Virus record (IMG/VR): IMGVR_UViG_3300021479_000021
Span: 1 to 60,448 of that record
Origin: a virus
Taxonomy: Duplodnaviria > Caudoviricetes
Direction: 5' to 3' (one strand)
Length of the DNA stretch: 60,448 bases
Below, in pieces: positions 5,706 to 57,604 of this stretch; position 1 is the stretch's first letter, and each line of letters opens with the position of its first letter. The notes beneath the pieces are model-generated. The model ran no database searches and was not told where the DNA came from. It worked only from the letters and a program-made list of their open reading frames with translations. The position numbers were made by a program, and so were the translations under genes.

Positions 5706-6056
5706 TTATGCTATAATCATCTTAGGTGTTTCTAACCTCCAATTGAGATGCTTCATCATCAGTACAGTGTATGGCCCACCTCTACCTATTGGTTTTGATA
5801 TTCTCCATTTTAAATGTTTCAATATCAGCATAGTTATAAAACTTTCGATCTCATAAGGCTGTAATCTATATTTCTTTTCAAAAACTGACCATATTGAATT
5901 ATAATCAACGGCTAAATATCCATTTTCTTTGTTATTATACATCACTACAAAATCATCCAAATCCTTAACCACAATATTACCTGGATTTTTAGAATCCAAA
6001 GATATAGATCCTAATTTAGATAAGAAAAACTCCTCCAATGATATTATTTTTTTCAT
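5706..6056 (-). CDS. small array-associated protein, copy 1 (reads through repeat-spacer-repeat)
   Basis: paralog of 15937..16284 and 26333..26617 (EEFFL.KL, VVMYN.KN.YL.VDY..IWSVFEK.Y, LKHL.WR..P twice). Confidence 0.8.
   Translation of the reverse strand: MKKIISLEEFFLSKLGSISLDSKNPGNIVVKDLDDFVVMYNNKENGYLAVDYNSIWSVFEKKYRLQPYEIESFITMLILKHLKWRISKPIGRGGPYTVLMMKHLNWRLETPKMIIA
5725..5826 (-). CRISPR. mini CRISPR-like array: 2 repeats, one 30-nt spacer
   Basis: repeat 5725-5760 is 32/36 and repeat 5791-5826 is 24/36 identical to the 16152 repeat; spacer 5761-5790. Confidence 0.7.
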
Positions 6057-14598: not shown

Positions 14599-14880
14599 AT
14601 GCCTTACCTTACAGCCATTATAATTATATGTTTCATTATCTTTTTACTTCAAAAACGCAAAAAAGGAGATAAATTAAGTGATAAAATAAAATTGTTCATG
14701 GAAAATAATCCAGATGATAATGTAACAATCCTTGCAGCTAAAATAGCAAAGAGTGAAGATTTTAACTTTATCCCTTTTAATGTGGCTGAAGAATATTGTT
14801 ATCTTATAAATGACGATAAACCTGTTGATCATTTGGATGAAGAGTATGATATCAGTATTAACCTAAACAGAAATGATTAA
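14599..14880 (+). CDS. membrane-anchored hypothetical protein
   Basis: N-terminal TM helix. Confidence 0.6.
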   Translation: MPYLTAIIIICFIIFLLQKRKKGDKLSDKIKLFMENNPDDNVTILAAKIAKSEDFNFIPFNVAEEYCYLINDDKPVDHLDEEYDISINLNRND

Positions 14881-15658
14881 ACATATAAAAATAATCAATA
14901 ATAGAAAATCTCTACTCTGTACATTATGGGGTCCTAAAGAAATAAAACTTTCAGAAAATGTTAATATAATTTTCTCACCAAATGGTACAGGCAAATCTGT
15001 AATGTTAAAAGGTTTAGCTTATTTTACAAGTTGTCAAAAAGGTGGATGGTCCACAGGATTAGATCCATTAGAAGCTAAGCTAGAGGTATTTTCTCCTATG
15101 GAAATAGATTATGTTAAACTAAAAAACAAGAAATCTAAAATTGGAGCTATGAATATTGATTGGGATGGAACACCAACCTACTATTCTAAAGCCATGTTAG
15201 ATGACTCATCTCAGAATATGCAAAATGCTTTATTTGGAATGAATCAAGAAATGAGCCTTGAAGATGCTATAGTGATGCATAAACAAAACTTATCCCAAGG
15301 CCAAACTACAATAACACATTTAAATAACATATTCCAAAGTACCCTTCCTGATATAACATTAGAAAAACATACAGAATCTAATAATATCTGGCAGAAGGCC
15401 GGAAGAATTTTAAGTGATTATGTAAAAACATTACCAAGAGATGGTAAACCAACCATACTCTTAGATGAACCTGACAGAAGTTTTGACTTTATAAATCAAA
15501 GATTCTTCTGGGAAAATGTAAACAAGCTGGCCGAGAAGTTTCAACTGATCATAACTACACATAGTATGTTTGTGTTAACAGATATTGCTAAGGATTTCAA
15601 TATAATAGAAATCACTCCAGGGTATTATAAAAAAGCAAAAGAAATAATAAAAGTATAA
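14873..15658 (+). CDS. ABC/AAA-type ATPase
   Basis: Walker A SPNGTGKS, signature LSQGQ, Walker B ILLDEPD, H-loop TTH. Confidence 0.85.
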   Translation: MIKHIKIINNRKSLLCTLWGPKEIKLSENVNIIFSPNGTGKSVMLKGLAYFTSCQKGGWSTGLDPLEAKLEVFSPMEIDYVKLKNKKSKIGAMNIDWDGTPTYYSKAMLDDSSQNMQNALFGMNQEMSLEDAIVMHKQNLSQGQTTITHLNNIFQSTLPDITLEKHTESNNIWQKAGRILSDYVKTLPRDGKPTILLDEPDRSFDFINQRFFWENVNKLAEKFQLIITTHSMFVLTDIAKDFNIIEITPGYYKKAKEIIKV

Positions 15659-15742
15659 TATAGAAGAATTTCTGAATAAGAACTATAATATGGTTCAATT
15701 AGGAGCACCAGAATGGATAACAGGTAAAAGACCAGAACAATT

Positions 15743-15940
15743 ATGACAGATATATTTAAAAAAGATACCTTTTTGAAATTCAATTCAGAAGATAATAGAA
15801 TCGAACAAATCATTGATGTTGATAATGAAACACTCTTTACAAAAAAAAGTAATGATAAAGTCGTCAAATACAAAGAAAAAGATATTCGAGTAAAGATCTA
15901 CAATGGCCTTTGTACATTACATAAAAATTATCCAGTATGA
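15743..15940 (+). CDS. hypothetical protein
   Basis: ORF overlapping (ATGA) the next gene. Confidence 0.55.
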   Translation: MTDIFKKDTFLKFNSEDNRIEQIIDVDNETLFTKKSNDKVVKYKEKDIRVKIYNGLCTLHKNYPV

Positions 15941-16284
15941 CAGCGGAGGATTTTTTGATATTGAAGTTAGGGAGTGTTTCTTTAGACAAAGAATATCCAG
16001 GTAATATCATTATTAAAGATTCGGAAGGATATACTGTGATGTACAATAGAAAAAATCGCTATTTAGAGGTTGATTATATAAATATATGGTCAGTTTTTGA
16101 GAAGCAATATAACATGAATTATACTGATATACAATTATTTATAACTAACATGATGTTGAAGCACCTCAATTGGAGGCCAGAAACACCTTGTTACCAGTGG
16201 GTATGGGAAAACTTTCCGATGTTGAAGCACCTCAATTGGAGGCCAGAAACACCTTTATCAATTGTAGATACACCAGGACCATAG
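15937..16284 (+). CDS. small array-associated protein, copy 2 (C-terminus encoded by array)
   Basis: paralog of copies 1 and 3; MLKHLNWRPETP encoded by repeats 1 and 2. Confidence 0.8.
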   Translation: MTAEDFLILKLGSVSLDKEYPGNIIIKDSEGYTVMYNRKNRYLEVDYINIWSVFEKQYNMNYTDIQLFITNMMLKHLNWRPETPCYQWVWENFPMLKHLNWRPETPLSIVDTPGP

Positions 16285-16450
16285 ATGTTGAAGCACCTCA
16301 ATTGGAGGCCAGAAACACCTTTATTGGCAAGTTTAATACCTTCTTCAATGATGTTGAAGCACCTCAATTGGAGGCCAGAAACACCACCATGTTCTCAGGC
16401 TTTAAAAGAAATGAGATGTTGAAACACCTCAAATGGAAAACACAAACAAG
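16152..16450 (+). CRISPR. CRISPR-like array, 36-nt repeat GATGTTGAAGCACCTCAATTGGAGGCCAGAAACACC (type VI-B-like), 4 spacers
   Basis: identical repeats at 16152, 16218, 16284, 16350 and a degenerate one at 16415; unique spacers of 30, 30, 30 and 29 nt; CCTC/GAGG and TGTT/AACA stems. Confidence 0.92.
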
Positions 16451-16474
16451 AATATTATAATATCAATATATTCG

Positions 16475-16975
16475 TTAAATGTAATCCACCTCAGCTTCTT
16501 TCCCAAGAAGTTTAAATGCATCTGACTTAATACTTGGCCAATAAAATACAAGTTTATCGTTAACATTACTCATCTCATAACCCGGTAGAAACTTAGGAAA
16601 ATATCTCATATAAGTTTTTGTTCTTTTAGAAACTTCTCCAGTATCACTAGTATCTTTTCTTACACCATTGATAAAAATTATAGAGGTATAATACTCTTTG
16701 TTTAGTTTAATACATTTAAGAATTGCTTTACCTATTGTATTCAAAACTTTAGACATATTCCCTTTATTAGATACTTGAGAAGATGAACCGTTAATAAAGA
16801 AATAAAGCTCCAAATAATAAATATTACTACCTTCTACAACAATATTTTTAGGTACCAATTTAACCGTATACACATCACCAAATTCTGTTTTGAAAATCAT
16901 AGAAAAATTACTCTTCCTTAACGGATAAGTTTCGGATGATTCATTAAACTGCTCAAATGTTTTAAAATAATTCAT
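16475..16975 (-). CDS. hypothetical protein, putative head-internal protein
   Basis: probable start MNYFKTFEQFNES. Confidence 0.7.
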   Translation of the reverse strand: MNYFKTFEQFNESSETYPLRKSNFSMIFKTEFGDVYTVKLVPKNIVVEGSNIYYLELYFFINGSSSQVSNKGNMSKVLNTIGKAILKCIKLNKEYYTSIIFINGVRKDTSDTGEVSKRTKTYMRYFPKFLPGYEMSNVNDKLVFYWPSIKSDAFKLLGKEAEVDYI

Positions 16976-17020
16976 TGATCTATATATTAGATACATTTAT
17001 AAACATATGCTATATACAGT

Positions 17021-17446
17021 ATGGTTTTAGACAAGATAGCCTTGGGTGAGAAATATATCAACTACTTAAAAAAAGTAGAAGAATTAATAATTCGAGACCT
17101 GGAGAATACATCAAAGGATTATATTCAAGATCATGAATTTTTCTTTAACAGAAAGGATGAACGAGATAATATACTGAACATGGGTCTGGAACAGCATTCT
17201 GTTTTATCAATGGGTGAGACTTATAGTATACTTACAAACATAGAAAATATGTTAGTGATTGTTATTATTTACAAATCAATTCTAAATAACTCAGCATATA
17301 CAGTCTGTTTAGGTAAAACCAGCAGATCTGGTAAAATAGAATATATCAGTGATACAAAAAAGCACGCCGGAATTATTTTCAAATTCTTTATAAAACTAAA
17401 TATGATTATGAAGAAGAGATATAAAATAGATATTAAGACTCTTTAA
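17021..17446 (+). CDS. hypothetical protein
   Basis: weak N-terminal similarity to the 1225/2009 family. Confidence 0.6.
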   Translation: MVLDKIALGEKYINYLKKVEELIIRDLENTSKDYIQDHEFFFNRKDERDNILNMGLEQHSVLSMGETYSILTNIENMLVIVIIYKSILNNSAYTVCLGKTSRSGKIEYISDTKKHAGIIFKFFIKLNMIMKKRYKIDIKTL

Positions 17447-18201
17447 TCTTTAAAAGCGTCTCTACTACCTATTGCTGCATGATACACACTTGCGAAGAAT
17501 AATTCTTTCTTAAGTTCTATTAACTTCTCTGTATGGACACCAAGCTCATTTAATTTATCAGCAAGTTCTGGCTTAAGGTAATAGGCATCTTGATATGAAA
17601 TAGTAGCTTCATGTTTAGAATTAAGTTTTACTTCAGCTAATATTAATCTTGACTTATTTGGAATACTGTATAATTTTTTACCAGCTGCTTCTTGTTTAGT
17701 ATATACTTCCCTTTGAACATTTATAGCATATTTACCACCAGAACCAGGAATAGGCCTAGCTCTCACTACAGCACTCTTATTATCAATCGAATCGTTTTCA
17801 ACATCTTCCAACAGCTTAGAAAACTTCGTAATATTTGTATTAATTGATTCCACAATCTCTGTTAAAGCTTCTGGAGAATACTCTACAATACCATCACCAA
17901 GAACTTTGGCTACATGTATAGGATCTTCACCAGCTTCATCATCGTGATCAACATCTCTATGTAAAACTTCCTCTATAGTCTCCAAATCATGATCCAGATA
18001 GGTATAACAACCATCTTTAGTTAATGGAACAACTTCACCCTCTGGAATACCATTTGTTGTATCACAAAAAACTATACCTTGTGATATAAGCTCTTCTAAT
18101 TCAGCATCAGAAACCAATATACTTGTACCAGATGGATTACCTATTATTTTCTTGTCATACCTGGTAATAAACGATTCAAAGGATTTTACGTACTGCTTCA
18201 T
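17443..18201 (-). CDS. hypothetical protein, putative head-internal protein
   Basis: MKQYVKSFESFI N-terminus. Confidence 0.7.
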   Translation of the reverse strand: MKQYVKSFESFITRYDKKIIGNPSGTSILVSDAELEELISQGIVFCDTTNGIPEGEVVPLTKDGCYTYLDHDLETIEEVLHRDVDHDDEAGEDPIHVAKVLGDGIVEYSPEALTEIVESINTNITKFSKLLEDVENDSIDNKSAVVRARPIPGSGGKYAINVQREVYTKQEAAGKKLYSIPNKSRLILAEVKLNSKHEATISYQDAYYLKPELADKLNELGVHTEKLIELKKELFFASVYHAAIGSRDAFKD

Positions 18202-18252
18202 TAACTTATTTCATTTTTGTTATATATTCGATAGTAAATATATCAAAATATT

Positions 18253-18285
18253 TTTGTAAATATCAAATATAAAATACTATCTTTG
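18253..18285 (+). promoter_or_regulatory. Bacteroidota-type promoter driving the tRNA
   Basis: TTTG-N21-TATCTTTG. Confidence 0.65.
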
Positions 18286-18310
18286 TATCAACAAATTCTG
18301 AAAGGAATTT

Positions 18311-18384
18311 GGGCTTTTAGCTCAGGTGGTTAGAGCAACTGACTCATAATCAGTAGGTCCTTGGTTCGAGTCCAAGAAGGCCCA
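18311..18384 (+). tRNA. tRNA with CAT anticodon (probably Ile2, otherwise Met); CCA not encoded
   Basis: GGGCTTT/AAGGCCC acceptor stem, ACTGA-CTCATAA-TCAGT anticodon arm, CTTGG-TTCGAGT-CCAAG T arm. Confidence 0.93.
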
Positions 18385-18394
18385 CATAATTATT

Positions 18395-19762
18395 TTATCC
18401 AAAACCTAATTCAACATATTCGTGAAAATCTTCTTCAGTTAGAGATTCATCATCATTATCTAAACATGTTATGGAGAATTGTGGTTCTTCAGATAATTTT
18501 GAAATGAATGTATCAACAAAATGTGCAGCAATTTCTAAATCCTGTGCTAAGAAGTCCAAATCATATGTTATATCTAAAATATATTCTTGATCTACTGTGC
18601 CACTTTCATATCTAGTTTCAAAATCAGAAACATTCAATTCCAAATTTACAACTAAATCAGACTTTTCAACTTTCTTTAAAACACTAGGAAACTCATAAAA
18701 AGCTTCAATCAATCTTGGATATAATTCTCTTTTTTTATAATCATCTTCTAAAGCCTCTTCAACATCTTCTTTACTAAATCCAGACTCCTCAAATTCTTCC
18801 ATTGTCAAAAATGTATATTTGACACCAGATAAACGATAAGTTTTCATATTACTTAAATCAGCAGTTGATATAAAATATTTTCTCCATTTTTCTACATAAC
18901 TAACATCTACTTCTGAATCATTTCTAGCATGACAGGCTGAGATGTAACCGTTAGGAATCATCGTCACACCAATCATAGAAAGAATATCTTCTCTTTGTTT
19001 ACTTGTATCCCAAATAAAGAACTGTTTATTTACTTGTTTAACGTATTGTGTAAACAGTTCATCATCTTGTGCTATACACCAAGAAGTATCTTTACCGAGT
19101 TCTTTAGAAGCCTCAAAATTACTAATTAAAGCAATAACAATTGTATCATCTGAATGAATTAATTCGGCTCCTGGAGTATCTTTTACTTTACTAATGATAG
19201 TTTCTACATTAAACTCACCATCAACTCCTTCAATGAATCCCTTGATATGATTATATAATTCACCCACAGTCTTGTTACGAGAAATTTTACTAAAAAGAAC
19301 ATCTTTCAAATAATTTTCTGACAAATCTTTATTATCGGTAACCATTTTATGTAATAATAGAAACAAATTATAAAACTTATCTTCCTGTCCAGTCATAAGA
19401 TTACGAACTTGTTTAGGTACCATATTGATTAATTTCTTAACAGCACTATCGGATTCAATTTTTTCAAAGAAATCAAGTAGTTGCTCATACGTATCAAATT
19501 TAGTAATATCTATTCCAGACGATTGAATATTAAGCCTGTATTTAACAAGTAGATTAAATACCTTATCAAACCACATTTGAATAGACTTATCCTTAGAAGC
19601 TATTTTTATAAACATTGGTAGATATTTTGAATACATTCCACTTAATTTAGCAGCAATAAAACTTAATGAATAAATGTCTTTCGGATCAATATTTAAACCT
19701 CTAGCTATATCTTCGGCCTGTTTCATAGATTCAAACAAGGCGTATGTTTTAAAATATTTCAT
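18395..19762 (-). CDS. large paralog-family protein A (SWCI domain)
   Basis: shares N-terminal ~300 aa with 44230..47874 and 49675..51543. Confidence 0.75.
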   Translation of the reverse strand: MKYFKTYALFESMKQAEDIARGLNIDPKDIYSLSFIAAKLSGMYSKYLPMFIKIASKDKSIQMWFDKVFNLLVKYRLNIQSSGIDITKFDTYEQLLDFFEKIESDSAVKKLINMVPKQVRNLMTGQEDKFYNLFLLLHKMVTDNKDLSENYLKDVLFSKISRNKTVGELYNHIKGFIEGVDGEFNVETIISKVKDTPGAELIHSDDTIVIALISNFEASKELGKDTSWCIAQDDELFTQYVKQVNKQFFIWDTSKQREDILSMIGVTMIPNGYISACHARNDSEVDVSYVEKWRKYFISTADLSNMKTYRLSGVKYTFLTMEEFEESGFSKEDVEEALEDDYKKRELYPRLIEAFYEFPSVLKKVEKSDLVVNLELNVSDFETRYESGTVDQEYILDITYDLDFLAQDLEIAAHFVDTFISKLSEEPQFSITCLDNDDESLTEEDFHEYVELGFG

Positions 19763-19802
19763 TAATCAATATTGTTAATTTCTAGCCTTATATATTGACT
19801 AA

Positions 19803-20246
19803 CTACAATAACATTCTATTAATCTCTATATCATTATATTCAGTATGTTGTTCGATCCATTTATCAATTGTAGATACACCAGGACCATACCGGCCAATTT
19901 GTAAAGGAATATAATCAATCCGGTAGTCTTCAAAAAACAAAGCTTCATTGTTTAATAATACAAATAAATCATTTTCACCTATATTACCAGTATATTCAAT
20001 TAAAATATCAATATCAGAATTAGATCTGTAGTTACCAATAACTCTACTACCAACAAGAGCTACCTCAAGCACTTTTATACCAGAAGATAACTCCATATCC
20101 AAGACATGTTCTAAATGTACAATTATCTCATCAAAAATTATATCACAATTTTCCAGTGTATCTAAATCCGGATCCGAAATAATTTTATTAGGTTGCGACT
20201 CCTTACGATCAAAATCTTCATCAAATGAATCATTAAAAATCTCCAT
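19803..20246 (-). CDS. minimal nucleotidyltransferase (Pol-beta superfamily)
   Basis: LVGSRVIG...SDIDILIEY...IDYIP. Confidence 0.85.
   Translation of the reverse strand: MEIFNDSFDEDFDRKESQPNKIISDPDLDTLENCDIIFDEIIVHLEHVLDMELSSGIKVLEVALVGSRVIGNYRSNSDIDILIEYTGNIGENDLFVLLNNEALFFEDYRIDYIPLQIGRYGPGVSTIDKWIEQHTEYNDIEINRMLL
19860..19889 (+). other. protospacer identical to array spacer 2 (16254-16283)
   Basis: TTTATCAATTGTAGATACACCAGGACCATA, 30/30. Confidence 0.95.
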
Positions 20247-20327
20247 AATTTTTATATGATAAAAGTACTTAAAGTTTAAAAATTATTGTTTACTTTTGTA
20301 TAAGTTAATAACATACAAAATTTAAGC

Positions 20328-23447: not shown

Positions 23448-24962
23448 CTATAGTATAACTAATTTCTTAACGGCTCTTCTACCGTTTTGTTTGATAACTT
23501 GAACAAAGTATATCCCGGTAGATAAATCAAAATGTTGATCCTCAGATGTATTCTGTGAAGAAATTGCTGTACCCTTTTCGTTAAAGACACTTATAGATTG
23601 TACATTCGTTGTTGATACATTGAATGAACCACTTGACGGATTTGGATATATTACAAAGTCTTCTTGCGTTGATAATCCATCATTGATCCCAGTAGTAACA
23701 GATTCAGCTGTTTGTGTAATTGTATACTGAGCCGTAACACTACCAGATGTAAGCGTAATTGTCGCCGTTCTATCATATGCTGTATTGTTTAGACTTCCAG
23801 GAACAATAGATAACAATTGATTACCATTAAGGGTAAAACTAGACAGTGATGAGAAATCTAACCAAGAAATATTTATACCAGTAATTGTCCAATTATCATT
23901 TGAAGTAACTTGAACACTTTGTGTGTTAGCCACAATTGATGTCTGATTATATGTAAATGCAACACTATTTGTTGAGACAACCAATGTAGCTACTATAGGC
24001 TGAGCCTTCTGTGTAATGTTAATAGTGATATTTGTTAATCCTGGCGAAGATAGAGTTATAGTTGTAGTTCTATCAGTATTTGTAGTGTTGTCATTTAGTG
24101 TACGAATCCAAAGGATAGTATCGTTAGAGAAAGCTGTACCGGCTAAGATAGTACCAGAACCGTTTTCTATATTTAACCAAGAAGCATCTGTTATAGCCAT
24201 GGACCAATTTGTATTAGAGCTTACCTGAATTTTATTAATATAGGTTGAGCCGTTTATTGTATCACGAGCATTTGAAGCAAAAGTAAGAGCTGTTACAGTT
24301 GTAGTTAAATAAGGTGTTACAGCAACATCTTGCTGGGTAACAGTAAGTGTTATCGTGGTTACACCTGCACTTATTGATATGGTACCAGTTCTTGGTGCTC
24401 CTGTTGTATTATTATCTACATAGAAAGTTATAGAAGTTGTACCAGATAGACCAGAGAGAGTATATGTACCACCAGCTATACCGAATCTCAACCACCCACC
24501 TGTAGAGGTAGCTGTAGCATTCCAATCAGCATCTGAAGTAACAGCTTCTGTATATGTATTCTGTATTGATGATATACTTTTAGTATATTCAACCAAACTC
24601 ATAGTTGCCGGAGAAGCAGTTTGAGTAACAGTTATATCCGTTGAGCTTGCCCCACCGTTAAAGGAAACTGTTATAACACCACTTCTGGAACTTGTTAGAG
24701 AGGGATTAACGGTAACAGCTGACACCGTTACACTTCCTGAACCTGTCCCAGATGGTACACCTGATAATGTTACCCAAGACGGCTTTACGGTAATCGTCCA
24801 TGGCATACCAACAGGTACTGTTATACTGATAATCTGACCCGCCACTCCAGGCGATGCATATGATAAACTACTAGGCAAAACGCCTATCGATACTGCGAAA
24901 CTCGATAATGCTGTCATAAGCATCAGAGACATAACTAATAATATTCTTTTCATGTTTTTCAT
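23448..24962 (-). CDS. secreted protein with four BACON-like domains and a T9SS (Por) C-terminal sorting domain
   Basis: signal peptide; repeated W...WL...N....R.G.IT...TVTQ; IYPNPSSG...GIYFV...KKLVIL. Confidence 0.85.
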   Translation of the reverse strand: MKNMKRILLVMSLMLMTALSSFAVSIGVLPSSLSYASPGVAGQIISITVPVGMPWTITVKPSWVTLSGVPSGTGSGSVTVSAVTVNPSLTSSRSGVITVSFNGGASSTDITVTQTASPATMSLVEYTKSISSIQNTYTEAVTSDADWNATATSTGGWLRFGIAGGTYTLSGLSGTTSITFYVDNNTTGAPRTGTISISAGVTTITLTVTQQDVAVTPYLTTTVTALTFASNARDTINGSTYINKIQVSSNTNWSMAITDASWLNIENGSGTILAGTAFSNDTILWIRTLNDNTTNTDRTTTITLSSPGLTNITINITQKAQPIVATLVVSTNSVAFTYNQTSIVANTQSVQVTSNDNWTITGINISWLDFSSLSSFTLNGNQLLSIVPGSLNNTAYDRTATITLTSGSVTAQYTITQTAESVTTGINDGLSTQEDFVIYPNPSSGSFNVSTTNVQSISVFNEKGTAISSQNTSEDQHFDLSTGIYFVQVIKQNGRRAVKKLVIL

Positions 24963-26242: not shown

Positions 26243-26300
26243 AAATAACTAATTTATTTTTAGTATATATGAAATTAGAGCTTATTAAATTATAAGCTTG

Positions 26301-26384
26301 TTGAGGTGCTTCAAGAACTACCTTTTTTGCCGTTATACACTCCACGTAGGTTTTTCAGGCCTACAATTGAGGTGCTTCAAGAAC
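26301..26384 (-). CRISPR. mini CRISPR-like array: full repeat, 30-nt spacer, half repeat
   Basis: repeat 26349-26384 is 31/36 identical to the 16152 repeat; spacer 26319-26348; 18-nt partial repeat 26301-26318. Confidence 0.7.
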
Positions 26385-26617
26385 ATATCTATTATAAACG
26401 TTTGAATGTCTTTATAATTCATACGATATTCCTTTTCAAAAATTGACCATACATGTTCATAATCAACATATAAGTAGCTATTTTTTCTATTGTACATCAC
26501 AACATATCCTTCACTATCTTTAATAATAATAATATTATCACAGTATCTTTCTTTTTTTATAGAAATAGTAAACTCACTTATTTTATTAATAAAAAATTCC
26601 TCAGCAGATTCTTTCAT
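26333..26617 (-). CDS. small array-associated protein, copy 3
   Basis: IIIKDSEGYVVMYNRKNSYLYVDY..VWSIFEK...FLKHLNCRPEKP. Confidence 0.8.
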   Translation of the reverse strand: MKESAEEFFINKISEFTISIKKERYCDNIIIIKDSEGYVVMYNRKNSYLYVDYEHVWSIFEKEYRMNYKDIQTFIIDMFLKHLNCRPEKPTWSV

Positions 26618-44217: not shown

Positions 44218-44247
44218 AAAAAAGGAGCTCTATTGGGCTCCTTTTTT
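44218..44247. terminator. bidirectional terminator
   Basis: AAAAAAGGAGCTC-tatt-GGGCTCCTTTTTT. Confidence 0.75.
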
Positions 44248-47200
44248 ATTTAGTCGTTCTTTCTGTTTAAGATCAACTTTAGCTTTTTTAATAGCTTCCT
44301 TCAAATATTCTCTTACATCATCTTCAAGATTTTTACCAGTCTTTAACTCATTGTAAATATATTGTGGATCAGCACCTTGTTGTTCAATTAAATATTTTGT
44401 TTTTTCTAGTGATGCAACCTGGTCACCACTCCAAGATTTTCTAGCTGCGTTAATACCAAGATCATTAATATTGATTATCTTACCTTTGTATTTATTAAAC
44501 AAAAATTCTAATCCTTCATCAGATTCACCATTATAAGCATATGATTCAACCAACTTATTTATTTCTTCATCTGTTAATTGTGGACCATTTTCTATCAGGT
44601 ATTTCATTATTTCATATGAGTATGTTGAGTATAACATTTGTTTAAATGTGTATTTAAACTTAAGATCCTCTACAAAATATTTAATGATTCCCATCATGTC
44701 ATTAATATTTTCATTGGATTGTTTTTTGACAGCCTCAGCAAAAGATGATATAATTATTTCAGATTTTTCTGATTTATTAAAATGATAACTTTTTGTTTCA
44801 ATGACTTTTCGATCCTTATAGTAGGCACCTTTACTTATAAGATATTTGACAAGTTCCAAATTACCACCTTTAATAGCACTTATTAAAGCAGTTCCGTTAT
44901 TAGATTCAAAACTTCTTGAACCAGAATTATATTTATTTAAGTCAACACCTAAACTTTCTAAAAATTTAACTATATCTGTATGACCATTGACTGAGGCCTT
45001 CAATAAATATAAGTTCAGATCTTTTTTATCTAATATATTATATTTCTGTCCTAACTTAAGAATATCTAAATGACCATTTGATGCAGCATATTCAAATATA
45101 GAATTACTTAAAATATTATCCTTAAATTTTTTGTACCCATTCTCAAGTGCAAAATTTAATATGTCAGTATAACCATTGTAACCAATCGTAAAATAATCTA
45201 AATCTTTTAAGGATGCACCATTATTAAATAATAATTTAACCATTTCTAAATCATCATTTTTACAAGCCTCATATATAGGAGCATGAGAATGTTTATCAGG
45301 TTCATTTACAGGACAACCATTTTTAATTAAATAAGCAACAAGTTTTGTATTATCAACAATTTTCTCTTCGTTTTCTTTACTATATTGGTCCTTTATTGCT
45401 TGAGTTATAGGAGCACTTCCAAGTTTCTTCAAATCAAGATTTTCTTTATCAATAAGTTTCTTTAATTGATCATATTTTTTATTTCTAATTGTATAACTTA
45501 CCCATTTATTTAAGGTATCCTTACATATTTCAGATAAATCATTATTTCTTTCATAAAAGAAATCCATGATCTCATGAACATCCTTATCACTTGCGTATTG
45601 TATTATTGAATAATTATTATCAGGAGAAACCTTTTCACCGTAGTTAGTTTTTTTTAAACCTGATGGTTCAGCACCAGCTTCAAGAAACATTAAAAGTATT
45701 TTATTATTTAGATCTGTTTCTTCATCATAACGACCTGGGATAGTTGATAGAAATATTGAATTAGAAGAATTTGGTAAATTTGGATTTGCACCTTTATCAA
45801 GTAAAAACTTAATTTTATCTATATCTTTTTCATGTACAGACATACCCAATAATTCACCACCATCAACATTTATATCACCACCTCTTTTTAAGTATTCATA
45901 AAATCTTTTTTCATCATTTAAATGGTAGAAGAATTTTAATTCGTCTATTTCCTTCTTGTCAGAATTTTCTTCATCAAAGCAAGGCTCCGCACCTAAATCA
46001 AACAATTTTTTAGCTAATTCTACATTGAAAGAAAAATCTGGATTATTGATTAATTTTACCGGAATAGCTTGTATAGTAATAAACATTGGTGTTTCTCTAA
46101 AACGATTATAACTTATATTCATATTCAAGACACTTTTATCAAAAGCTAAAAATTTATCAATAAGTTCTTCATTTTTAAGATTAATAACATCAGGAAAAAA
46201 GGCCTTTATAGTTTCTTTATCGAATTTATAATTTTCAATATAAAAATTAATAAGTGGTATTTGAATATCTTGGGTTATATTTTTATTTCTATTTTCAATA
46301 GATAATTGTGAAGCTATATTATTCTTATCTTCATCAGAGAGCTCTTTAATTAGATTAGGAAACTGTTTGGATAAAAACATGAACAGTTTTATAGCTTGTA
46401 CCTTAGAAGCATAAACAATTTGATTTTGTGTGCTTATGGCTTTATTTGGTCTGATATTTTTAATATCTGTTAATGCGTATACCTCATCACTTGATCTGTA
46501 ACCTTTAGTGAGCAAATATTTATAAAAATCAACATCATCCATAGCTATAGATAAAGTTAAAGGAAATTTATAGTTTGTATGAATATGACAACCTTTATCA
46601 TACAAAAAAATAATAAAATCTTTGTTTTTCTGTGTCTGCATGGCTACATAATCAATATATTCATAATTAACAGAATTAACTTCAATAAATCCGTCTATTT
46701 TATAACCATAATCATTTATTAATTTGTTAAATAGTTCTTCATCACAATTAACGAGGGCTAAATTCATTACAGCATTATCATCAGTAAATGGATTCAAACC
46801 GTTATCGAATAAATAAAATATTTTTTCATTATCACTTGTTCTTATAGCTGCCTTAAACTCATATAATAATTCAATCTCTTTTTGTTTATCTTCTTTCTCT
46901 GAGATACTCATTGGTTTTAAAACATTCAGTGGAATATTATACTGTTTAGCATATTGATCAAAATCTCTGATTTGAGTATCATCTTTAAAATGTGCAGCAT
47001 TATTATTGTTACTTGGTTTGTATACATTACCATCTTGATCAATTGTAACACCAACTCTTGTGTGAATGTCAGAGAAAGGTACAGCAAAATCCCATATAGA
47101 ATATTGGGCATTAAATTTATATTCAGCTCCTACATAAGTATCCCAGTGTGTTTTAGAATCTTTTATACACCAGGATGTATCACTTAGTAAAGCTTTAGAA

Positions 47201-47844
47201 GCTGTAAAAGTATAAATTCTTGCTATAAGTAATTCTCTTTCAGGATTAGCATAAACTAATTCTGCTCCTTGTGTATTAAGAATTTTGTTTTTTATAAGAT
47301 CATAATCCCATTCCTGATTAACAAAACCTTCAAGGCTTTCTATTAATTCTGTTAGTGTTTTATAACGTGCCAGCTTTTTAATAAAAGCTTGTTGAGTTTC
47401 CTTGGGTAGTTTATTTAATTCTAATGCTAAGTTATCTACTTTACTTTTAGTATTTGTGTCAGCATCTCTATACCAATTTTTTTGTGCTGGTAATAAAGCA
47501 TTAAAAAATAGTTTAGCTTTTCTGTAGCTTTGAAGATCCCTTAGATCATCTTCAAGTTCTTCAAAATTTTGATATTGTATAACCGGCTTAGGTAACTGTC
47601 CAAGTAAATCTTTTAATTCAAACAAATTATCACTGAGTCTTTCAAGATCAATCATAGGGATCTTATCATCAAATCTGAATTTGGTAAACAGACCTAAAAA
47701 TCCAGGTCTTTTTTTAAGCCAGACCTGTATTTGTAAAAAATCAGGATCCTTGGGATCAATATTATTTTTTGTAATAACCGACTTAGCTTTTTGCATATCT
47801 TCATTCATGAGGTTGAATGAATCAAAATTCAGTACAAATGACAT
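44230..47844 (-). CDS. large paralog-family protein B with C-terminal ankyrin repeats
   Basis: SWCI domain, then ACKNDDLEMVKLLFNNGA, AASNGHLDILK, ASVNGHTDIVKFL, AIKGGNLELVKYLISKGA; probable start MSFVLNFDSF. Confidence 0.85.
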   Translation of the reverse strand: MSFVLNFDSFNLMNEDMQKAKSVITKNNIDPKDPDFLQIQVWLKKRPGFLGLFTKFRFDDKIPMIDLERLSDNLFELKDLLGQLPKPVIQYQNFEELEDDLRDLQSYRKAKLFFNALLPAQKNWYRDADTNTKSKVDNLALELNKLPKETQQAFIKKLARYKTLTELIESLEGFVNQEWDYDLIKNKILNTQGAELVYANPERELLIARIYTFTASKALLSDTSWCIKDSKTHWDTYVGAEYKFNAQYSIWDFAVPFSDIHTRVGVTIDQDGNVYKPSNNNNAAHFKDDTQIRDFDQYAKQYNIPLNVLKPMSISEKEDKQKEIELLYEFKAAIRTSDNEKIFYLFDNGLNPFTDDNAVMNLALVNCDEELFNKLINDYGYKIDGFIEVNSVNYEYIDYVAMQTQKNKDFIIFLYDKGCHIHTNYKFPLTLSIAMDDVDFYKYLLTKGYRSSDEVYALTDIKNIRPNKAISTQNQIVYASKVQAIKLFMFLSKQFPNLIKELSDEDKNNIASQLSIENRNKNITQDIQIPLINFYIENYKFDKETIKAFFPDVINLKNEELIDKFLAFDKSVLNMNISYNRFRETPMFITIQAIPVKLINNPDFSFNVELAKKLFDLGAEPCFDEENSDKKEIDELKFFYHLNDEKRFYEYLKRGGDINVDGGELLGMSVHEKDIDKIKFLLDKGANPNLPNSSNSIFLSTIPGRYDEETDLNNKILLMFLEAGAEPSGLKKTNYGEKVSPDNNYSIIQYASDKDVHEIMDFFYERNNDLSEICKDTLNKWVSYTIRNKKYDQLKKLIDKENLDLKKLGSAPITQAIKDQYSKENEEKIVDNTKLVAYLIKNGCPVNEPDKHSHAPIYEACKNDDLEMVKLLFNNGASLKDLDYFTIGYNGYTDILNFALENGYKKFKDNILSNSIFEYAASNGHLDILKLGQKYNILDKKDLNLYLLKASVNGHTDIVKFLESLGVDLNKYNSGSRSFESNNGTALISAIKGGNLELVKYLISKGAYYKDRKVIETKSYHFNKSEKSEIIISSFAEAVKKQSNENINDMMGIIKYFVEDLKFKYTFKQMLYSTYSYEIMKYLIENGPQLTDEEINKLVESYAYNGESDEGLEFLFNKYKGKIININDLGINAARKSWSGDQVASLEKTKYLIEQQGADPQYIYNELKTGKNLEDDVREYLKEAIKKAKVDLKQKERLNKKGAQ

Positions 47845-47897
47845 TAATTTTATTGAGTTTGAATTATATATCAAATTTTACTAATATACAATACAAG

Positions 47898-54305: not shown

Positions 54306-55667
54306 ATGTCAAATATAAAACTTGTGATTTTTGATTTAGATGGAACATTAATTGAGTCAACTAAAGAATTACATTACGAAGCTCTAAATAAAGCTTTATA
54401 TGAAATATCACCAAATTTTATAATTAATAAAAAAGAACATGAAGATATTTATGATGCTCTTTCAACTAAACAAAAACTACATTTGTTAACATTAAACAAA
54501 GGCCTTAATATAGATCATCATGATAAAATAAATAAAAGAAAACAAGAAATTACTTTTGAACTTCTAAAAAATCACATTTTCAATATAGACAGAACAGAAT
54601 TTCTAAAAGATTTAAAAAATGAAGGCTTTAAAATAGCCATTTGTACTAACTCAATTAAAAAAACTACTGGTATTATTTTAGAAAAATTAGGTATAACAGA
54701 ATTAGTTGATATTGTTTTTACTAATGAAGACGTTACTAAACCTAAACCAGATCAGGAAATATTCAATAAAGCAATTAATTATTTTAATATTGAACCTAAT
54801 GAATGTATAATATATGAAGATTCTAAATATGGTATTGAAGCAGCAGAAAAAACAGGAGCTTTTCTAAGAGTTGTTAAAGATGTTGATAAATTAAATACAC
54901 AGACCGTTAAAAAAGATATTAATGATTATAACATTAAAAATATGGAAATAAATATACTTATACCTATGAGTGGAAAAGGAAGTCGTTTCTTAGCAACACA
55001 TAAAGAACCAAAACCTCTTATAAAGATTAAAGAAAATTTGACCATGATAGAATTGGTCGTGAAAAATTTAAACATCAAAGGTAATTATATTTTTATAGTT
55101 CTTAAAGAACATTATGAAAAGTATGATTTACATAATGTGTTAACTAAAACTTCATCTAATGTAAAAATTGTAATCGTTGATTCAGTAACAGAAGGAGCTT
55201 GTTGCACATCCCTCTTGGCTAAAGACATAATAAATAATGATACACCTATATTCATAGCTAATTCAGATCAATATGTTGAAGATTGGAATCCAGAAGAATT
55301 TTTTTATAAAATACATTCAAATAATTTAGATGGTGGTATAGTTACCTTTAGAGACACTGATCCTAAATGGTCATTTGCAAAGATAGATGAAAATGGTATA
55401 GTAACAGAAGTTGCGGAAAAACGTCAAATTAGTGATATATCAACCGTGGGATTTTACTACTGGGTGAAGGGTTCTGATTATGTTAAGTATGCTGAACAAA
55501 TGATAAATAAAAATATAAGAGTAAACGGAGAATTTTTCATCGCACCTGTTTACAATGAAGCTATTATCGATAATAAAAAATTTACAACATTTGATATTAA
55601 AAAAATGTTCGGACTTGGCATACCAAACGATTTACAGATCTTTCTAAATTCTGGATTGATATACTAA
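54306..55667 (+). CDS. HAD phosphatase fused to sugar-phosphate nucleotidyltransferase
   Basis: IFDLDGTL, KPKPD, YEDS..G; IPMSGKGSRF...PKPLI, NSDQ, EK, NGEF, GLG.P.DL. Confidence 0.88.
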   Translation: MSNIKLVIFDLDGTLIESTKELHYEALNKALYEISPNFIINKKEHEDIYDALSTKQKLHLLTLNKGLNIDHHDKINKRKQEITFELLKNHIFNIDRTEFLKDLKNEGFKIAICTNSIKKTTGIILEKLGITELVDIVFTNEDVTKPKPDQEIFNKAINYFNIEPNECIIYEDSKYGIEAAEKTGAFLRVVKDVDKLNTQTVKKDINDYNIKNMEINILIPMSGKGSRFLATHKEPKPLIKIKENLTMIELVVKNLNIKGNYIFIVLKEHYEKYDLHNVLTKTSSNVKIVIVDSVTEGACCTSLLAKDIINNDTPIFIANSDQYVEDWNPEEFFYKIHSNNLDGGIVTFRDTDPKWSFAKIDENGIVTEVAEKRQISDISTVGFYYWVKGSDYVKYAEQMINKNIRVNGEFFIAPVYNEAIIDNKKFTTFDIKKMFGLGIPNDLQIFLNSGLIY

Positions 55668-55747
55668 TCTTTAAACTTTCTTATCAAGGTTATTAGTTTT
55701 AAAAAATGTTTCTTTACCGTACTTATCAATCTTATAAACATCATTAC

Positions 55748-56395
55748 CTATATGTGTAGATGTAAATACAAATTATCATCATTTTCATATTTAACACAGC
55801 ACCATACAGGACTAAACTCTTCTTTAGCTTCGTTGAGAGTTTTCTCATCTGTTTTATATTTATTAACATCATCGATTAAAGGGTATTGTTCTTTATCGAG
55901 AAATTCTCCTTCACATTTTTTATTTAAATCATTGAAGTAATGCCACCGTTCACCTTTCTTTTTTACTGTAGACCACGAATTGTTATCATAATATGTATCT
56001 TCTATTCTTTGTGATAAAACTTTAGCACTATCTGGTACATTATTTTTAATAAGAAATTCCTTTAATTGACCTACATTTAAATTATGTTTATAACTTAAAT
56101 TTTCTTGATGTAATTGTTCAATTATCAAATCTTTAGCTGGTTTTGTCTTCTCAATCATTATCTCACAGATAACACCTAACGCTTCAGCTTTATTAAACAG
56201 AATATACATATCATCTTTACTCAAACAATTAATGACTACTTGAATATCATCTACTAAACAATCAACATTCTTTTTAGCTTGAGTTAGTGATAAACTACTA
56301 TGCTTACGAAGCAATTCCACAAGTGACACTTTTTGAAGACCTTCTTTCCATCCGGTAAAAACTACTCTGTATAATGTTTCAATTGCTAATTCCAT
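55748..56395 (-). CDS. hypothetical protein with N-terminal L7/L12-CTD-like domain
   Basis: KVSLVELLRKHSSLSLTQAKKNVD. Confidence 0.5.
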   Translation of the reverse strand: MELAIETLYRVVFTGWKEGLQKVSLVELLRKHSSLSLTQAKKNVDCLVDDIQVVINCLSKDDMYILFNKAEALGVICEIMIEKTKPAKDLIIEQLHQENLSYKHNLNVGQLKEFLIKNNVPDSAKVLSQRIEDTYYDNNSWSTVKKKGERWHYFNDLNKKCEGEFLDKEQYPLIDDVNKYKTDEKTLNEAKEEFSPVWCCVKYENDDNLYLHLHI

Positions 56396-56399
56396 TTGT

Positions 56400-56663
56400 T
56401 TATCTTCCTAATTTATCAATTTTATCTTTTTGATTTTTCTTATCGTTTTTATCAATATCATCGTAATAATAATCTTGTAATTCATATAAATAAAATATTA
56501 ATAATCCTACAAATCCACTAGCTGAAGATATTGTAATAATATGTATAAGTCTCATTTGATTTAAGAAAGGATCATTGAATGCTAATATAACTAGAAACAG
56601 CAATAAGCAAGTTAATGAAAAATATCGAACAAATATTATTAATATTTCAAGAACTTTTTTCAT
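56400..56663 (-). CDS. two-TM membrane protein
   Basis: two hydrophobic segments, charged C-terminus; start uncertain. Confidence 0.55.
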   Translation of the reverse strand: MKKVLEILIIFVRYFSLTCLLLFLVILAFNDPFLNQMRLIHIITISSASGFVGLLIFYLYELQDYYYDDIDKNDKKNQKDKIDKLGR

Positions 56664-56743
56664 GGTATATACATCATATAAAATTTTAAAAACATTTTGA
56701 CAAAATAACATATAAAAATTAAATTACCAAATTTTATTTAAAA

Positions 56744-57604
56744 TTATTTTCCCTTTCCACAGTCACCAGAGAACCTTCCTTCAAACTTTTCATAATTGAC
56801 ATCATGTAGAGATTTGTAAATACCATCGGTGTCTTTTATTTTATACTGCCCGGCTGAAGTATGCATATAAACAACACCATTCAAATTAAATTCAATATTG
56901 TTTATATTGTTCCTTTGTAATATCTTTTGTGAAAATATATGAGGACAAAATATTTTATCACAACTCAAGAATAAATCATACATGTATGTAAAAGCTTCAG
57001 TAAACTTTAAAATATTTTCGGCTGAAGAAATATGTAAATTATCACCGATACCACCAGAATACCCATTAATATGTCCGATATGATTTCTATGATACAAACT
57101 ATAGTAATTATTAAAATTACCAAATACGGGTAATTTATCATTAAATAAACAGAGATCTGGTCTAACCCTAACTATCACATCATATTCTTTACCACTGTTT
57201 TTTATGAGTTCACCACCACTATGTATTTTATAAAACATGGATAAGGTATTCTTCTTACGCACTAAACAATTAGAGTGGTTTATAGCTGGAATAAAAAACT
57301 CTTCGTATTGATCACTGAGTTGATCCAACCATGGCTCCTTTTCTATAAAATTTTCTAATAAGATATGTTCAGTTTTATATAACTCTTGAAGTTCATTTAA
57401 TTCAACCTTACCAGTCATTTCTATACCATGAGAAGAATCTTGAGATTTTATATCACCGGCCTGCCAATATCCAATTTGATCCCAGGTAGAAATAAAAATA
57501 TCTTCGTTTTTAATACCATAGGGATCCATGATATTTGTTTTGATTGATTCGAAAGCTGTTTTGTATTCACGAAGCATTCCTGTTAATAATAAAGCTACTC
57601 TCAT
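56744..57604 (-). CDS. putative glycosyltransferase
   Basis: ALLLTGMLR, FISTWD, SMFYKI, YDVIVRVRPD. Confidence 0.7.
   Translation of the reverse strand: MRVALLLTGMLREYKTAFESIKTNIMDPYGIKNEDIFISTWDQIGYWQAGDIKSQDSSHGIEMTGKVELNELQELYKTEHILLENFIEKEPWLDQLSDQYEEFFIPAINHSNCLVRKKNTLSMFYKIHSGGELIKNSGKEYDVIVRVRPDLCLFNDKLPVFGNFNNYYSLYHRNHIGHINGYSGGIGDNLHISSAENILKFTEAFTYMYDLFLSCDKIFCPHIFSQKILQRNNINNIEFNLNGVVYMHTSAGQYKIKDTDGIYKSLHDVNYEKFEGRFSGDCGKGK

Follow-up and report, generated by a model that had tools for sequence, protein, structure and literature searches.

A phage mini-array spacer that matches the nucleotidyltransferase gene of its own carrier: a probable accidental self-capture

The stretch of phage DNA analyzed here (the window, 60,448 nt) carries a short repeat-spacer array whose second spacer exactly reproduces a segment of the phage's own nucleotidyltransferase (NTase) gene. 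Accidental self-capture is the likeliest origin of this spacer, and the reading in which it is a silencer built for the NTase is weak. The fuller account, in which the spacer was acquired incidentally into decoy-like, VI-B-type phage mini-arrays and is no dedicated regulator, is given about an even chance of being right. The features on which the analysis turned are as follows, in window coordinates.

14873-15940, + strand: upstream genes, an SMC/ABC-type ATPase (14873-15658) and a 65-aa ORF (15743-15940)
15937-16187, + strand: conserved part of small cassette gene A (the caller's ORF extends to 16284)
16152-16450, + strand: mini-array A, five 36-nt repeats, the last degenerate
16152-16187, 16218-16253, 16284-16319 and 16350-16385, + strand: array A repeats, with the degenerate terminal repeat at 16415-16450
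16188-16217, + strand: spacer 1, 30 nt, no match found
16254-16283, + strand: spacer 2, 30 nt, exact self-match
16320-16349, + strand: spacer 3, 30 nt, no match found
16386-16414, + strand: spacer 4, 29 nt, no match among the phage contigs compared
19803-20246, - strand: target gene, a minimal (MNT-type) nucleotidyltransferase of 147 aa (PF01909)
19860-19889, - strand: protospacer, NTase codons YGPGVSTIDK, mRNA flanks 5' G and 3' UGG
26283-26617, - strand: cassette B, with gene paralogue 26333-26617, repeat 26349-26384 and 30-nt spacer 26319-26348
5706-6056, - strand: cassette C, with degenerate repeat 5791-5826, 30-nt spacer 5761-5790 and repeat 5725-5760

In the window the 30-mer of spacer 2 has two exact copies and no more, one at 16254-16283 and one at 19860-19889, each read on the + strand without a mismatch; a pair of matches arose in none of 100 dinucleotide-preserving shuffles. 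The second copy is the reverse complement of the NTase codons. Identity ended precisely at the spacer borders, where repeats bound the array copy: the genomic copy is flanked by ...GATCCA and CCGGCC..., the array copy by ...AACACC and GATGTT.... The first-pass annotation had reported this 30/30 match inside the minus-strand gene, read it as a true protospacer and a sign of captured sequence, and given the mRNA flanks; each of these points held. Independently, a Logan contig (8017 nt) spanned 16356-20300 with zero differences, which places the array tail and the protospacer on contiguous DNA; the Logan run is possibly the sample from which the window was itself assembled. The target gene matched Pfam NTP_transf_2 at E 1.3e-7 (32.3 bits, above the gathering cut-off of 21).

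In cassette A, the final 12 codons of the small gene (MLKHLNWRPETP) are also repeat 1 of the array. Four identical 36-nt repeats and one degenerate repeat followed each other at spacings of 66, 66, 66 and 65 nt, which is the pattern of near-identical repeats of ~23–47 nt at regular spacing seen in CRISPR arrays generally. The stop of the 65-aa ORF overlaps the start of gene A, which is translationally coupled to the upstream + strand genes; these place the array in a + strand transcription context. Orientation on the + strand, as previously proposed, was further supported by the degeneration of the 3'-terminal repeat and by sense-strand scores against Cas13b repeats; transcribed in this direction, the guide would be antisense to NTase mRNA. 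Ahead of the first repeat lies an ORF, open in 8/8 copies, where a non-coding AT-rich leader would otherwise be expected, and dN/dS of the cassette gene was 0.18–0.81 (28 pairs among the 8 copies). The predicted fold left repeat 1 of array A free, with no blocking hairpin. The small protein had no structural or PDB relative, and its fold model was poor (pLDDT 62.5).

The window contains three such cassettes; in each, a mini-array opens with a 36-nt repeat that is also the final 12 codons of a small ORF. The second repeat of cassette B is truncated, running from 26318 downwards, and in cassette C the frame of the gene paralogue runs through both repeats and the spacer. Related contigs held at least eight further arrays or solitary repeats. 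Across the window and these contigs there were 11 cassettes, invariably ordered small ORF and then repeat, with eight distinct arrays of 1–4 spacers, degenerate 3'-terminal repeats and some single-repeat cassettes (such as L009). The source was a large soil phage, and the contigs were rated 14–31% complete. The small ORFs are members of an unnamed family that comprises at least 500 cluster representatives (50% identity clusters), across which the repeat sequence varies together with each gene copy. The tail motif was repeated in 45 of the 146 members examined, with a period of exactly 22 aa (66 nt) in 43.

All 21 spacers were different, and most were 30 nt long (15/21), with three of 29 nt and three of 31 nt. 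They were unique and of uniform length, and two were exact copies of other loci, as is expected of captured CRISPR spacers. The second self-match was found in a 167-kb relative (G002), where spacer 1 of the second cassette equals G002:160706-160735 (30/30), a segment of an ORF to which it is sense. Using a classifier that was 84% accurate and called both known cases correctly, 10 spacers were antisense-like and 11 sense-like; this split has P = 1.3e-4 if all 21 were antisense, and no antisense bias was seen. Only two of the 21 matched anything within ~345 kb, both on their own contig, so many spacers may originate elsewhere; matches to other related contigs, by which interviral mini-arrays would be recognized, numbered 0/21. 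The G+C content of the spacers also exceeded that of the phage (0.363 vs. 0.294, P = 1e-4). Two self-matches among 11 spacers, on contigs rated 31% and 29% complete, fit a large self-derived share.

The affiliation of the repeat with type VI-B was investigated using the geometry defined from preprint 10.1101/092577 and 13 real arrays, and using a position matrix and covariance model derived from real repeats adjacent to Cas13b. The 36 + 30 = 66-nt unit matched VI-B geometry. The window repeat itself ends GAUG...CACC with an AAUUG loop, where VI-B repeats have GUUG...CAAC and a poly-U loop; it scored 7.6 bits on the matrix, a value that 80% of shuffled windows reach, and gave no covariance-model match at E <= 10. 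Its mean identity to the 13 real VI-B repeats was 19.8/36, compared with 22–34 between real repeats. The sister repeat G002b, 28/36 identical to the window repeat, was the only one to score as VI-B. Specifically, it ends GUUG...CACC, was 28/36 identical to a real Cas13b repeat in the sense orientation, and scored 20.7 bits in sense vs. 7.0 in antisense. It ranked first of ~334,000 positions in the 167 kb, the next unrelated match scoring 12.9; shuffle maxima averaged 12.3, with a largest of 20.8 in 100. The covariance model, searched over 20 kb, returned the two G002b cassette repeats, in register, as its top matches (14.6 bits, E 0.21). Sense scores exceeded antisense scores in seven of nine cassette repeat variants.

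Searches for an effector, an integrase and a host array were also carried out. The three phage records, 303 kb in all, yielded neither Cas13a/b/d nor Cas1, no Cas domain was found among the 18 largest ORFs scanned, and no ORF of >=450 aa in two relatives held two RxxxxH motifs; within the 14–31% of each genome sampled, no cas genes were found near the cassettes. Copies of the repeat found by BLAST were confined to cassettes, with no anti-repeat seen, and every occurrence sits behind a small gene. With the patterns used, no host-type array bearing the cassette repeat was found in 185,579 species genomes or in the metagenome collection. The BACON and T9SS sorting domains encoded by the phage point to a probable Bacteroidota host. 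Cas13b matches were present in 2/401, 18/401 and 4/381 sampled genomes (Bacteroidota or its orders), and the cassette repeat was found in none of the Cas13b-matching genomes. The host Cas13b suggested at first pass is supported only indirectly; the window repeat failed both VI-B models, and neither a Cas13b gene nor a host array was found.

A phage that turns host Cas13b and spacer 2 on its own NTase mRNA, for silencing or tuning, would account for a perfectly matching + strand guide complementary to that mRNA and for the position of the spacer, second from the leader end. The 5' G flank would also suit it, being permitted for BzCas13b (10.1101/092577). However, the same preprint gives a 3' PFS of NAN or NNA, neither of which UGG fits, as had been remarked at the outset, and reports that Cas13b, once activated, cuts RNA non-specifically, which would make it a poor tuner of a single gene. 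The sense orientation of the G002 self-match and the 10:11 orientation split also fail to support purposeful silencing, and the NTase was found neither in the 167-kb relative nor, as close relatives, in IMG/VR. We consider this explanation distinctly unlikely. Exclusion of kin or competitors, in which the arrays would be directed, by an effector of either host or phage, at relatives that co-infect and carry the same NTase, is somewhat less improbable but still unlikely. Virus-borne mini-arrays are known to act in this way (PMC6858448), several related cassette-bearing contigs came from one sample, and the diversity and elevated G+C of the spacers hint at foreign sources. Yet the sole two matches lie on the carrier's own contig, and the two known NTase relatives (81% and 66% identical) both differ in the protospacer codons, reading YGPGISTIDK and YGPGNSSLDI; the spacer fits self better than kin, which also leaves the earlier idea of a competing phage as its source unsupported. 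An effector other than Cas13b, either phage-encoded in the unsampled 70% or a host type II/V system with 36/30 geometry, would spare self for want of a PAM. We give it a minority chance, a little above that of exclusion. The low completeness of the contigs leaves room for it; the failure of the window repeat in the VI-B tests, the covariation of repeat and gene copy throughout a large family and the lack of a host array in the collections searched are in its favor, and DNA targeting predicts random spacer orientation, as seen. Against it stand the ORF scans and Cas1 search described above, the lack of an anti-repeat in the BLAST search, and the VI-B-like sister repeat in sense orientation.

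Two further explanations would remove either the array or the self-match. The cassettes could encode, with no CRISPR function, a protein of 22-residue tandem repeats in which a conserved motif alternates with a variable 10-residue insert, comparable to multi-core peptide precursors. The motif is conserved at the protein level, 43 of 45 internally repeated members share the 22-residue period, and some ORFs traverse entire arrays (L008, 160 aa; P0013, 760 aa in five modules). Nonetheless, two inserts each reproduce 30 nt of another gene exactly, one of them in antisense, six of 21 inserts break the frame at 29 or 31 nt, stop codons terminate the ORF within arrays A and B, and the repeats are identical as DNA while the inserts are unrelated. 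This makes the protein explanation very improbable. An assembly artefact, in which a chimeric join made spacer 2, is scarcely credible: the window is a metagenome contig and repeats do break assemblies (one relative's contig ends within repeat 1), but intact repeats enclose a clean insert of 30 nt, the Logan contig runs from the array tail into the NTase gene without a difference, and a self-match arises independently in the 167-kb contig.

Under incidental self-acquisition, spacer 2 would have been excised from the phage's own NTase gene and integrated, Cas1-Cas2-style, into a phage-borne orphan mini-array. Each array starts within a small gene of the phage, and the final 36 nt of that gene, besides encoding the end of the protein, would act as a repeat of the VI-B kind. 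Cassette transcripts with repeat hairpins may load a matching host Cas13b with useless guides and so act as a decoy, comparable to the 'extraneous crRNA' (ecrRNA) of native VI-B arrays or to an RNA anti-CRISPR, possibly with help from the small protein. As DNA, the repeat may serve as an integration site for host spacer-acquisition machinery during infection. Such machinery would sample whatever DNA is available, the phage's own included, and in either orientation; the antisense NTase match would then be an incidental and recent by-product. It could be tolerated because Cas13b leaves DNA uncut and because the effector is absent, saturated, inhibited or disfavored by the 3' UGG. That the tail of a widespread gene family is at once a protein C-terminus and a Cas13b-type repeat, working as an RNA decoy and as a DNA landing pad for a host spacer integrase, is a tentative proposal that we hold to be possible but not probable; perhaps the small protein adds an anti-CRISPR role of its own. 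If it is true, these phages write CRISPR-style records of themselves and their neighbors into their own genes, the cassettes are the first viral examples of type VI repeat mimics or mini-arrays, and one sequence is selected both as protein and as crRNA scaffold.

Several known systems resemble the cassettes in part. The archaeal virus-borne mini-CRISPR arrays described in PMC6858448 are likewise short orphan viral arrays of 1–4 spacers with no cas genes nearby. The cassettes differ in starting inside a coding gene, in being multi-copy (three in 60 kb), and in that the only spacer matches found lie in the carrier and not in related viruses. RNA anti-CRISPRs (Racrs) and solitary repeat units (PMC10651486) mimic the host's own CRISPR repeat to inhibit the Cas effector. 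The cassette repeats likewise sit on a virus in which no cas genes were found, and cassettes such as L009 have a single repeat; Racrs, however, are described as non-coding and adjoining a promoter, whereas the cassette repeats lie in coding sequence and usually come with spacers. That survey reported solitary repeat units on viruses and plasmids for all CRISPR types except VI. Cracr arrays (bioRxiv 10.1101/2024.10.29.618823) are phage multiplexed repeat-spacer units, often beside an anti-CRISPR gene. Cracr spacers have their matches in promoters of host cas genes or in toxin genes, for types I and V-A; no such target is known for the cassettes, and their type is another one. VIPR (bioRxiv 10.64898/2026.10.15.759431) shares guide-encoding repeat arrays on phages but uses tandem 5-bp GGYNN units and a non-contiguous code, which sets it apart from the 36 + 30 nt unit and contiguous match found here.

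Native VI-B loci offer further parallels. With their spacer-then-repeat layout, whatever precedes the first repeat becomes the guide of an ecrRNA, and leader plus first-repeat RNA is reported to sequester Cas13b and reduce defense (PMC13187072). According to that source, a leader-repeat hairpin blocks the ecrRNA in native arrays, whereas the 'leader' of cassette A is mRNA with no hairpin predicted. The VI-B array of Flavobacterium columnare (PMC8092290) has the same 36-nt repeats and ~30-nt spacers; it is chromosomal and adjoins cas13b, while the cassette arrays are phage-borne, and its upstream protospacer motif TTTANNNNN is missing from both protospacers found here. New VI-B spacers in F. 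columnare were reported to come from the host genome about as often as from phage, with no evident harm, and many of these new spacers were unable to pair with mRNA (PMC8092290).

The window contains two copies, and no more, of TTTATCAATTGTAGATACACCAGGACCATA, the 30-nt sequence of the second spacer of array A; they lie at 16254-16283 and 19860-19889, both on the plus strand and with 0 mismatches. This exact search bore out the 30/30 self-match reported in the first-pass annotation, and two copies were found in 0/100 dinucleotide-preserving shuffles. Identity between the copies ends precisely at the spacer boundaries. The features involved were:

16254-16283, plus strand: spacer 2, the first 30-mer copy and second spacer of a five-repeat array
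19860-19889: protospacer, the second 30-mer copy, reverse complement of the codons for YGPGVSTIDK in a minus-strand ORF
19803-20246, minus strand: nucleotidyltransferase (NTase) target gene, 147 residues, PF01909 (NTP_transf_2) at 32.3 bits vs. a cut-off of 21

The mRNA flanks of the protospacer (G on the 5' side, UGG on the 3' side) are those given in that annotation. An 8017-nt Logan contig, from the one public run holding the region and possibly from the sample of origin, spans 16356-20300 without any difference, so that a second assembly likewise has the array end and the protospacer on one piece of DNA. The NTase is of the MNT type and stands alone, with no HEPN partner gene beside it. 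In HEPN-MNT pairs, MNT enzymes neutralise HEPN RNases through AMPylation, and Cas13 is a HEPN RNase; an anti-HEPN role for the NTase is possible. Two relatives of the NTase are known, 81% and 66% identical and located on tiny contigs. Both differ from the spacer in the protospacer codons, so the spacer fits its carrier better than any known relative. Close relatives were found neither in IMG/VR nor in G002, a 167-kb relative of the window. Between the array and the protospacer, a tRNA-Met (anticodon CAT; 18311-18385, plus strand) sits between minus-strand genes; Logan depth over it was 46 vs. 14.4, as expected for a conserved tRNA.

Array A consists of five 36-nt repeats, at 16152, 16218, 16284, 16350 and, in degenerate form, 16415 (spacing 66, 66, 66 and 65 nt). 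There is no non-coding leader upstream of repeat 1; instead, repeat 1 makes up the final 12 codons (MLKHLNWRPETP) of a small ORF starting at 15937, whose start codon overlaps the stop codon of the preceding plus-strand ORF. We call this unit, a small ORF whose end doubles as the first repeat of a mini-array, a cassette. Folds of the repeat were no more stable than those of shuffles, and the predicted fold of cassette A leaves repeat 1 free. Scanning for sigma-70 promoters gave 14 sites vs. 9.1 expected, with a consensus that does not cover Bacteroidota promoters. Rfam returned only the tRNA at gathering level; a single CRISPR-DR35 match was out of register (E 3.8) and was discarded. Spacers 1 and 3 had no exact match in IMG/VR, the whole array gave only chance-level matches in INPHARED (E 4), and the 8-kb array region had no near match there. 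Directly upstream of the cassette, in the same operon-like run, is an SMC/ABC-type ATPase (AAA_21 'AbiEii-type', SMC_N; 14873-15658, plus strand). Together, the degenerate terminal repeat and the end of spacer 4 (16412-16431) make up a hairpin that resembles a terminator, with its T-run on the minus strand and a position suited to ending the convergent gene 16475-16996.

Two other cassettes were located in the window:

26333-26617, minus strand: gene of cassette B, whose array has a single 30-nt spacer and a second repeat cut short
5706-6056, minus strand: gene of cassette C, a single ORF that runs through a degenerate repeat, a 30-nt spacer and another repeat

Every occurrence of the repeat in IMG/VR and the JGI metagenome collection lay behind the small ORF. 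Its carriers were G002 (two cassettes), the related 76-kb / 96-kb contig G001 (two cassettes) and three further contigs of one metagenome; the metagenome scan found it in 5 contigs of a single metagenome, each time behind the small gene. Cassettes on related contigs hold 0 to 3 spacers, all different, and the three large contigs have almost no nucleotide similarity outside the cassette. Two contigs terminate inside a cassette (G001:1-34 and, on another related contig, L012:1-90), and Logan depth over the small gene is ~8x that of its flanks (113-126 vs. 14.4), which indicates a multi-copy repeat that breaks assemblies. The related contigs may derive from a single very large genome. A weaker copy of the small gene, with 73% identity, was observed on a further contig (L011 9797-9945), ~1.2 kb downstream of that contig's cassette. 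No host array with an exact 24-mer of the repeat was found in IMG/VR or in 185,579 species genomes. A degenerate repeat pattern gave two single matches, both inside ordinary coding sequence, and these were rejected as host arrays.

The small ORF is open in 8/8 copies compared, in DNA of 29% G+C, with pairwise dN/dS of 0.18-0.81 (28 pairs), and is therefore a real gene. A word-based search recovered only 8 relatives, and a profile search of 1.84 billion representatives recovered at least 500 proteins at E ≤ 0.001, of which 30 reached ≤ 1e-10 and 5 reached ≤ 1e-30. The tail motif (approximately M-h-x-K/E-H-h-K-x-K-G-h-T-P) is conserved as protein and closes the conserved domain, and its sequence varies between distant members. 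Among the 146 distant members listed, 45 carried a second copy of their own tail motif, exactly 22 residues (66 nt) away in 43/45; this periodicity was read from protein, and nucleotide structure is inferred only for the phage clade in hand. One distant member, P0013, is a 760-residue prediction with five tandem small-gene modules in a single open frame, each followed by one or two 22-residue repeat-insert units; its genome is seemingly less AT-rich. No Pfam family exceeded its cut-off for the small protein or its profile-search relatives, and the small protein had no Atlas neighbour and no sequence relative in the PDB (best E 0.13). Its AlphaFold model (pLDDT 62.5) retrieved nothing from the PDB with Foldseek at E ≤ 0.001. 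With tblastn, two distant family members had no match in INPHARED, nor did the family profile match anything in 401 genomes of a Cas13b-rich order.

Each cassette unit joins a 36-nt repeat to a 30-nt spacer, and in the 66-nt crRNA the spacer would stand 5' of the repeat. Such 36/30 geometry is common to other CRISPR types too. Type VI-B, the Cas13b type, has the same 36/30 units and 66-nt crRNA with the spacer 5' of the repeat, according to a Cas13b preprint (10.1101/092577). As a reference, we collected real repeats beside cas13b (NCBIfam NF038190) in sampled Bacteroidota genomes, oriented by cas13b transcription. NF038190 was above cut-off in 2/401, 18/401 and 4/381 genomes, which yielded 13 repeats with mutual identities of 22-34/36. 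The window's own repeat failed this membership test: its mean identity to the 13 was 19.8/36 (best 22), its position-matrix score of 7.6 bits was equalled in 80% of shuffled windows, and a covariance model of 10 real repeats gave no match at E ≤ 10 at any window repeat. The repeat of the divergent second cassette of G002, GTTGTGGAAGCATCTCAAATGGAAGGTAAAAACACC, is 28/36 identical to one real Cas13b repeat and scored 20.7 bits in sense vs. 7.0 in antisense. This was the best position in 167 kb (next unrelated 12.9; shuffle maxima with a mean of 12.3 and a largest of 20.8 in 100), and its repeats were the top two covariance-model matches in the 20-kb locus, in register, at E 0.21. The window repeat is itself 28/36 identical to this one. 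Of the 13 real repeats, two can be read through in the cassette frame, and their tails (LWKPYICKVKT, LYLLSFWRVFT) resemble cassette tails (LWKHLKWKVKT, MLKHLNWRPET). Together, these comparisons are fair evidence that cassette repeats are relatives of VI-B repeats, read in the sense direction of the small gene, short of proof for the window's variant. No cas genes lie within reach of the arrays: Cas13a/b/d and Cas1 were not found in the 303 kb of three phage records (the window, G001 and G002), and 18 large ORFs scanned contained no Cas-like domain.

The window is an entire IMG/VR virus record (60,448 bases), rated 31% complete, and encodes a T4-type terminase. The gene content points to a Bacteroidota host, for which the best clue is:

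23448-24962, minus strand: protein of 504 aa with three BACON domains and a T9SS C-terminal sorting domain

Large ankyrin-repeat proteins were also observed in the window (44230-47874, minus strand, 1214 aa) and in G002 (55728-57935, minus strand, 735 aa); ankyrin repeats are unusual in phages of bacteria. A 453-aa protein that fuses a HAD phosphatase to a sugar-nucleotidyl transferase domain (54306-55667, plus strand) is possibly involved in nucleotide-sugar or DNA modification.

Self-capture was found a second time. Spacer 1 of the following array copies G002:160706-160735 (L008 5246-5275) over 30/30 positions:

G002:60647-61036 (L023 647-1036), minus strand: second cassette of G002, the sister array

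Its protospacer is 100 kb from the spacer, within a 361-residue ORF (substrate-binding domain plus a channel-like region, TVGFGD) and ~0.7 kb upstream of the contig's other cassette. The spacer is in sense orientation to this ORF, and its crRNA therefore could not pair with the target mRNA. Spacer orientation relative to target genes is thus mixed. We trained a codon-usage classifier on 141 ORFs from these contigs; it called 84% of real 30-mers and both known cases correctly, and scored 10 of the 21 spacers as antisense-like and 11 as sense-like; the probability of ≤ 10 antisense-like calls if all 21 were antisense is 1.3e-4. The classifier presumes source genomes with similar codon usage, an assumption made uncertain by the higher G+C content of the spacers (0.363 vs. 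0.294, P = 1e-4). Two self-matches among 11 spacers of two contigs ~30% complete are close to the 3.3 expected if all were self-derived, as would fit many spacers being so. Spacers had no match in the other related contigs, which implies a small self-derived share if the contigs are one genome. Each of the two known protospacers has a cassette nearby (3.4 kb and 0.7 kb away), and their flanks, read on the spacer-sense strand, share A at -1, C at -3 and the downstream pattern N-C-N-N-C-C (window 19845-19904, L008 5231-5290). With n = 2, these flanks hint at a motif or at local sampling.

The spacers consist of captured DNA, and their insertion duplicated the 36-nt unit at the gene-repeat junction. 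In Flavobacterium columnare, the VI-B array gains spacers via II-C machinery, from its own genome about as often as from phage, and many new spacers are unable to pair with mRNA, with no evident harm (PMC8092290). RNA of the leader and first repeat binds Cas13b and depletes active complexes, and native VI-B arrays block this RNA by a leader-repeat hairpin (PMC13187072). We suggest that the cassette transcript would act as a Cas13b decoy, and that the same repeat in phage DNA would serve as an integration site, whether accidental or exploited. The NTase spacer would then be an incidental product, retained since it is cheap.

Several other explanations were weighed against this decoy model. The first-pass annotation had suggested, among other readings, that the array silences or regulates the phage's own NTase. 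With plus-strand transcription of the array, spacer 2 would indeed be antisense to the NTase mRNA, but the sense orientation of the second self-match and the 10/21 vs. 11/21 split weaken this model, and dedicated antisense regulation of the NTase is improbable. Kin exclusion is unlikely, if somewhat less so; the better fit of spacer 2 to its carrier than to any known NTase relative speaks against it. An effector other than Cas13b, or one encoded by the phage, has the failed membership test of the window's repeat in its favour and the similarity of the G002 repeat to a real Cas13b repeat against it; it is also unlikely, by a little the least so of these, and stays a live rival because effector, integrase and host are all unseen. 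A translated peptide repeat would suit ORFs that read through whole arrays, such as P0013, and is very improbable beside spacers that copy genes in either orientation. Least credible of all is an assembly artefact: contigs do break at cassettes, which speaks for it, but a Logan contig runs from array end to protospacer unchanged.

If the cassette works as proposed, it would provide a natural RNA or protein inhibitor pair for Cas13b and a natural case of spacer integration outside a canonical array, and it would explain the persistence of perfect self-matches in a virus. The 22-residue periodicity in distant homologues makes the phenomenon testable in many genomes. The locus draws its interest more from being a variant of phage-borne CRISPR mimicry than from any self-regulation. 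For most CRISPR types, repeat mimics and mini-arrays carried by phages have been described; one survey found none for type VI (PMC10651486). Our literature searches found no description of phage-borne VI-B arrays, nor of this arrangement among solitary repeats and mini-arrays. Judging by these searches, an array that starts from the coding end of a conserved gene is not known to have been described. Programmable phage repeats (VIPR) were ruled out by unit structure. The closest known systems are virus-borne mini-arrays, solitary repeat units (RNA anti-CRISPRs, Racrs), viral crRNA-like Cracr arrays and VI-B extraneous crRNA. Unlike these, the cassette has a repeat in which the coding sequence of a conserved gene ends, is multi-copy, has only its carrier's own genes as targets found, and shows a 22-residue periodicity that runs through a large unnamed protein family.
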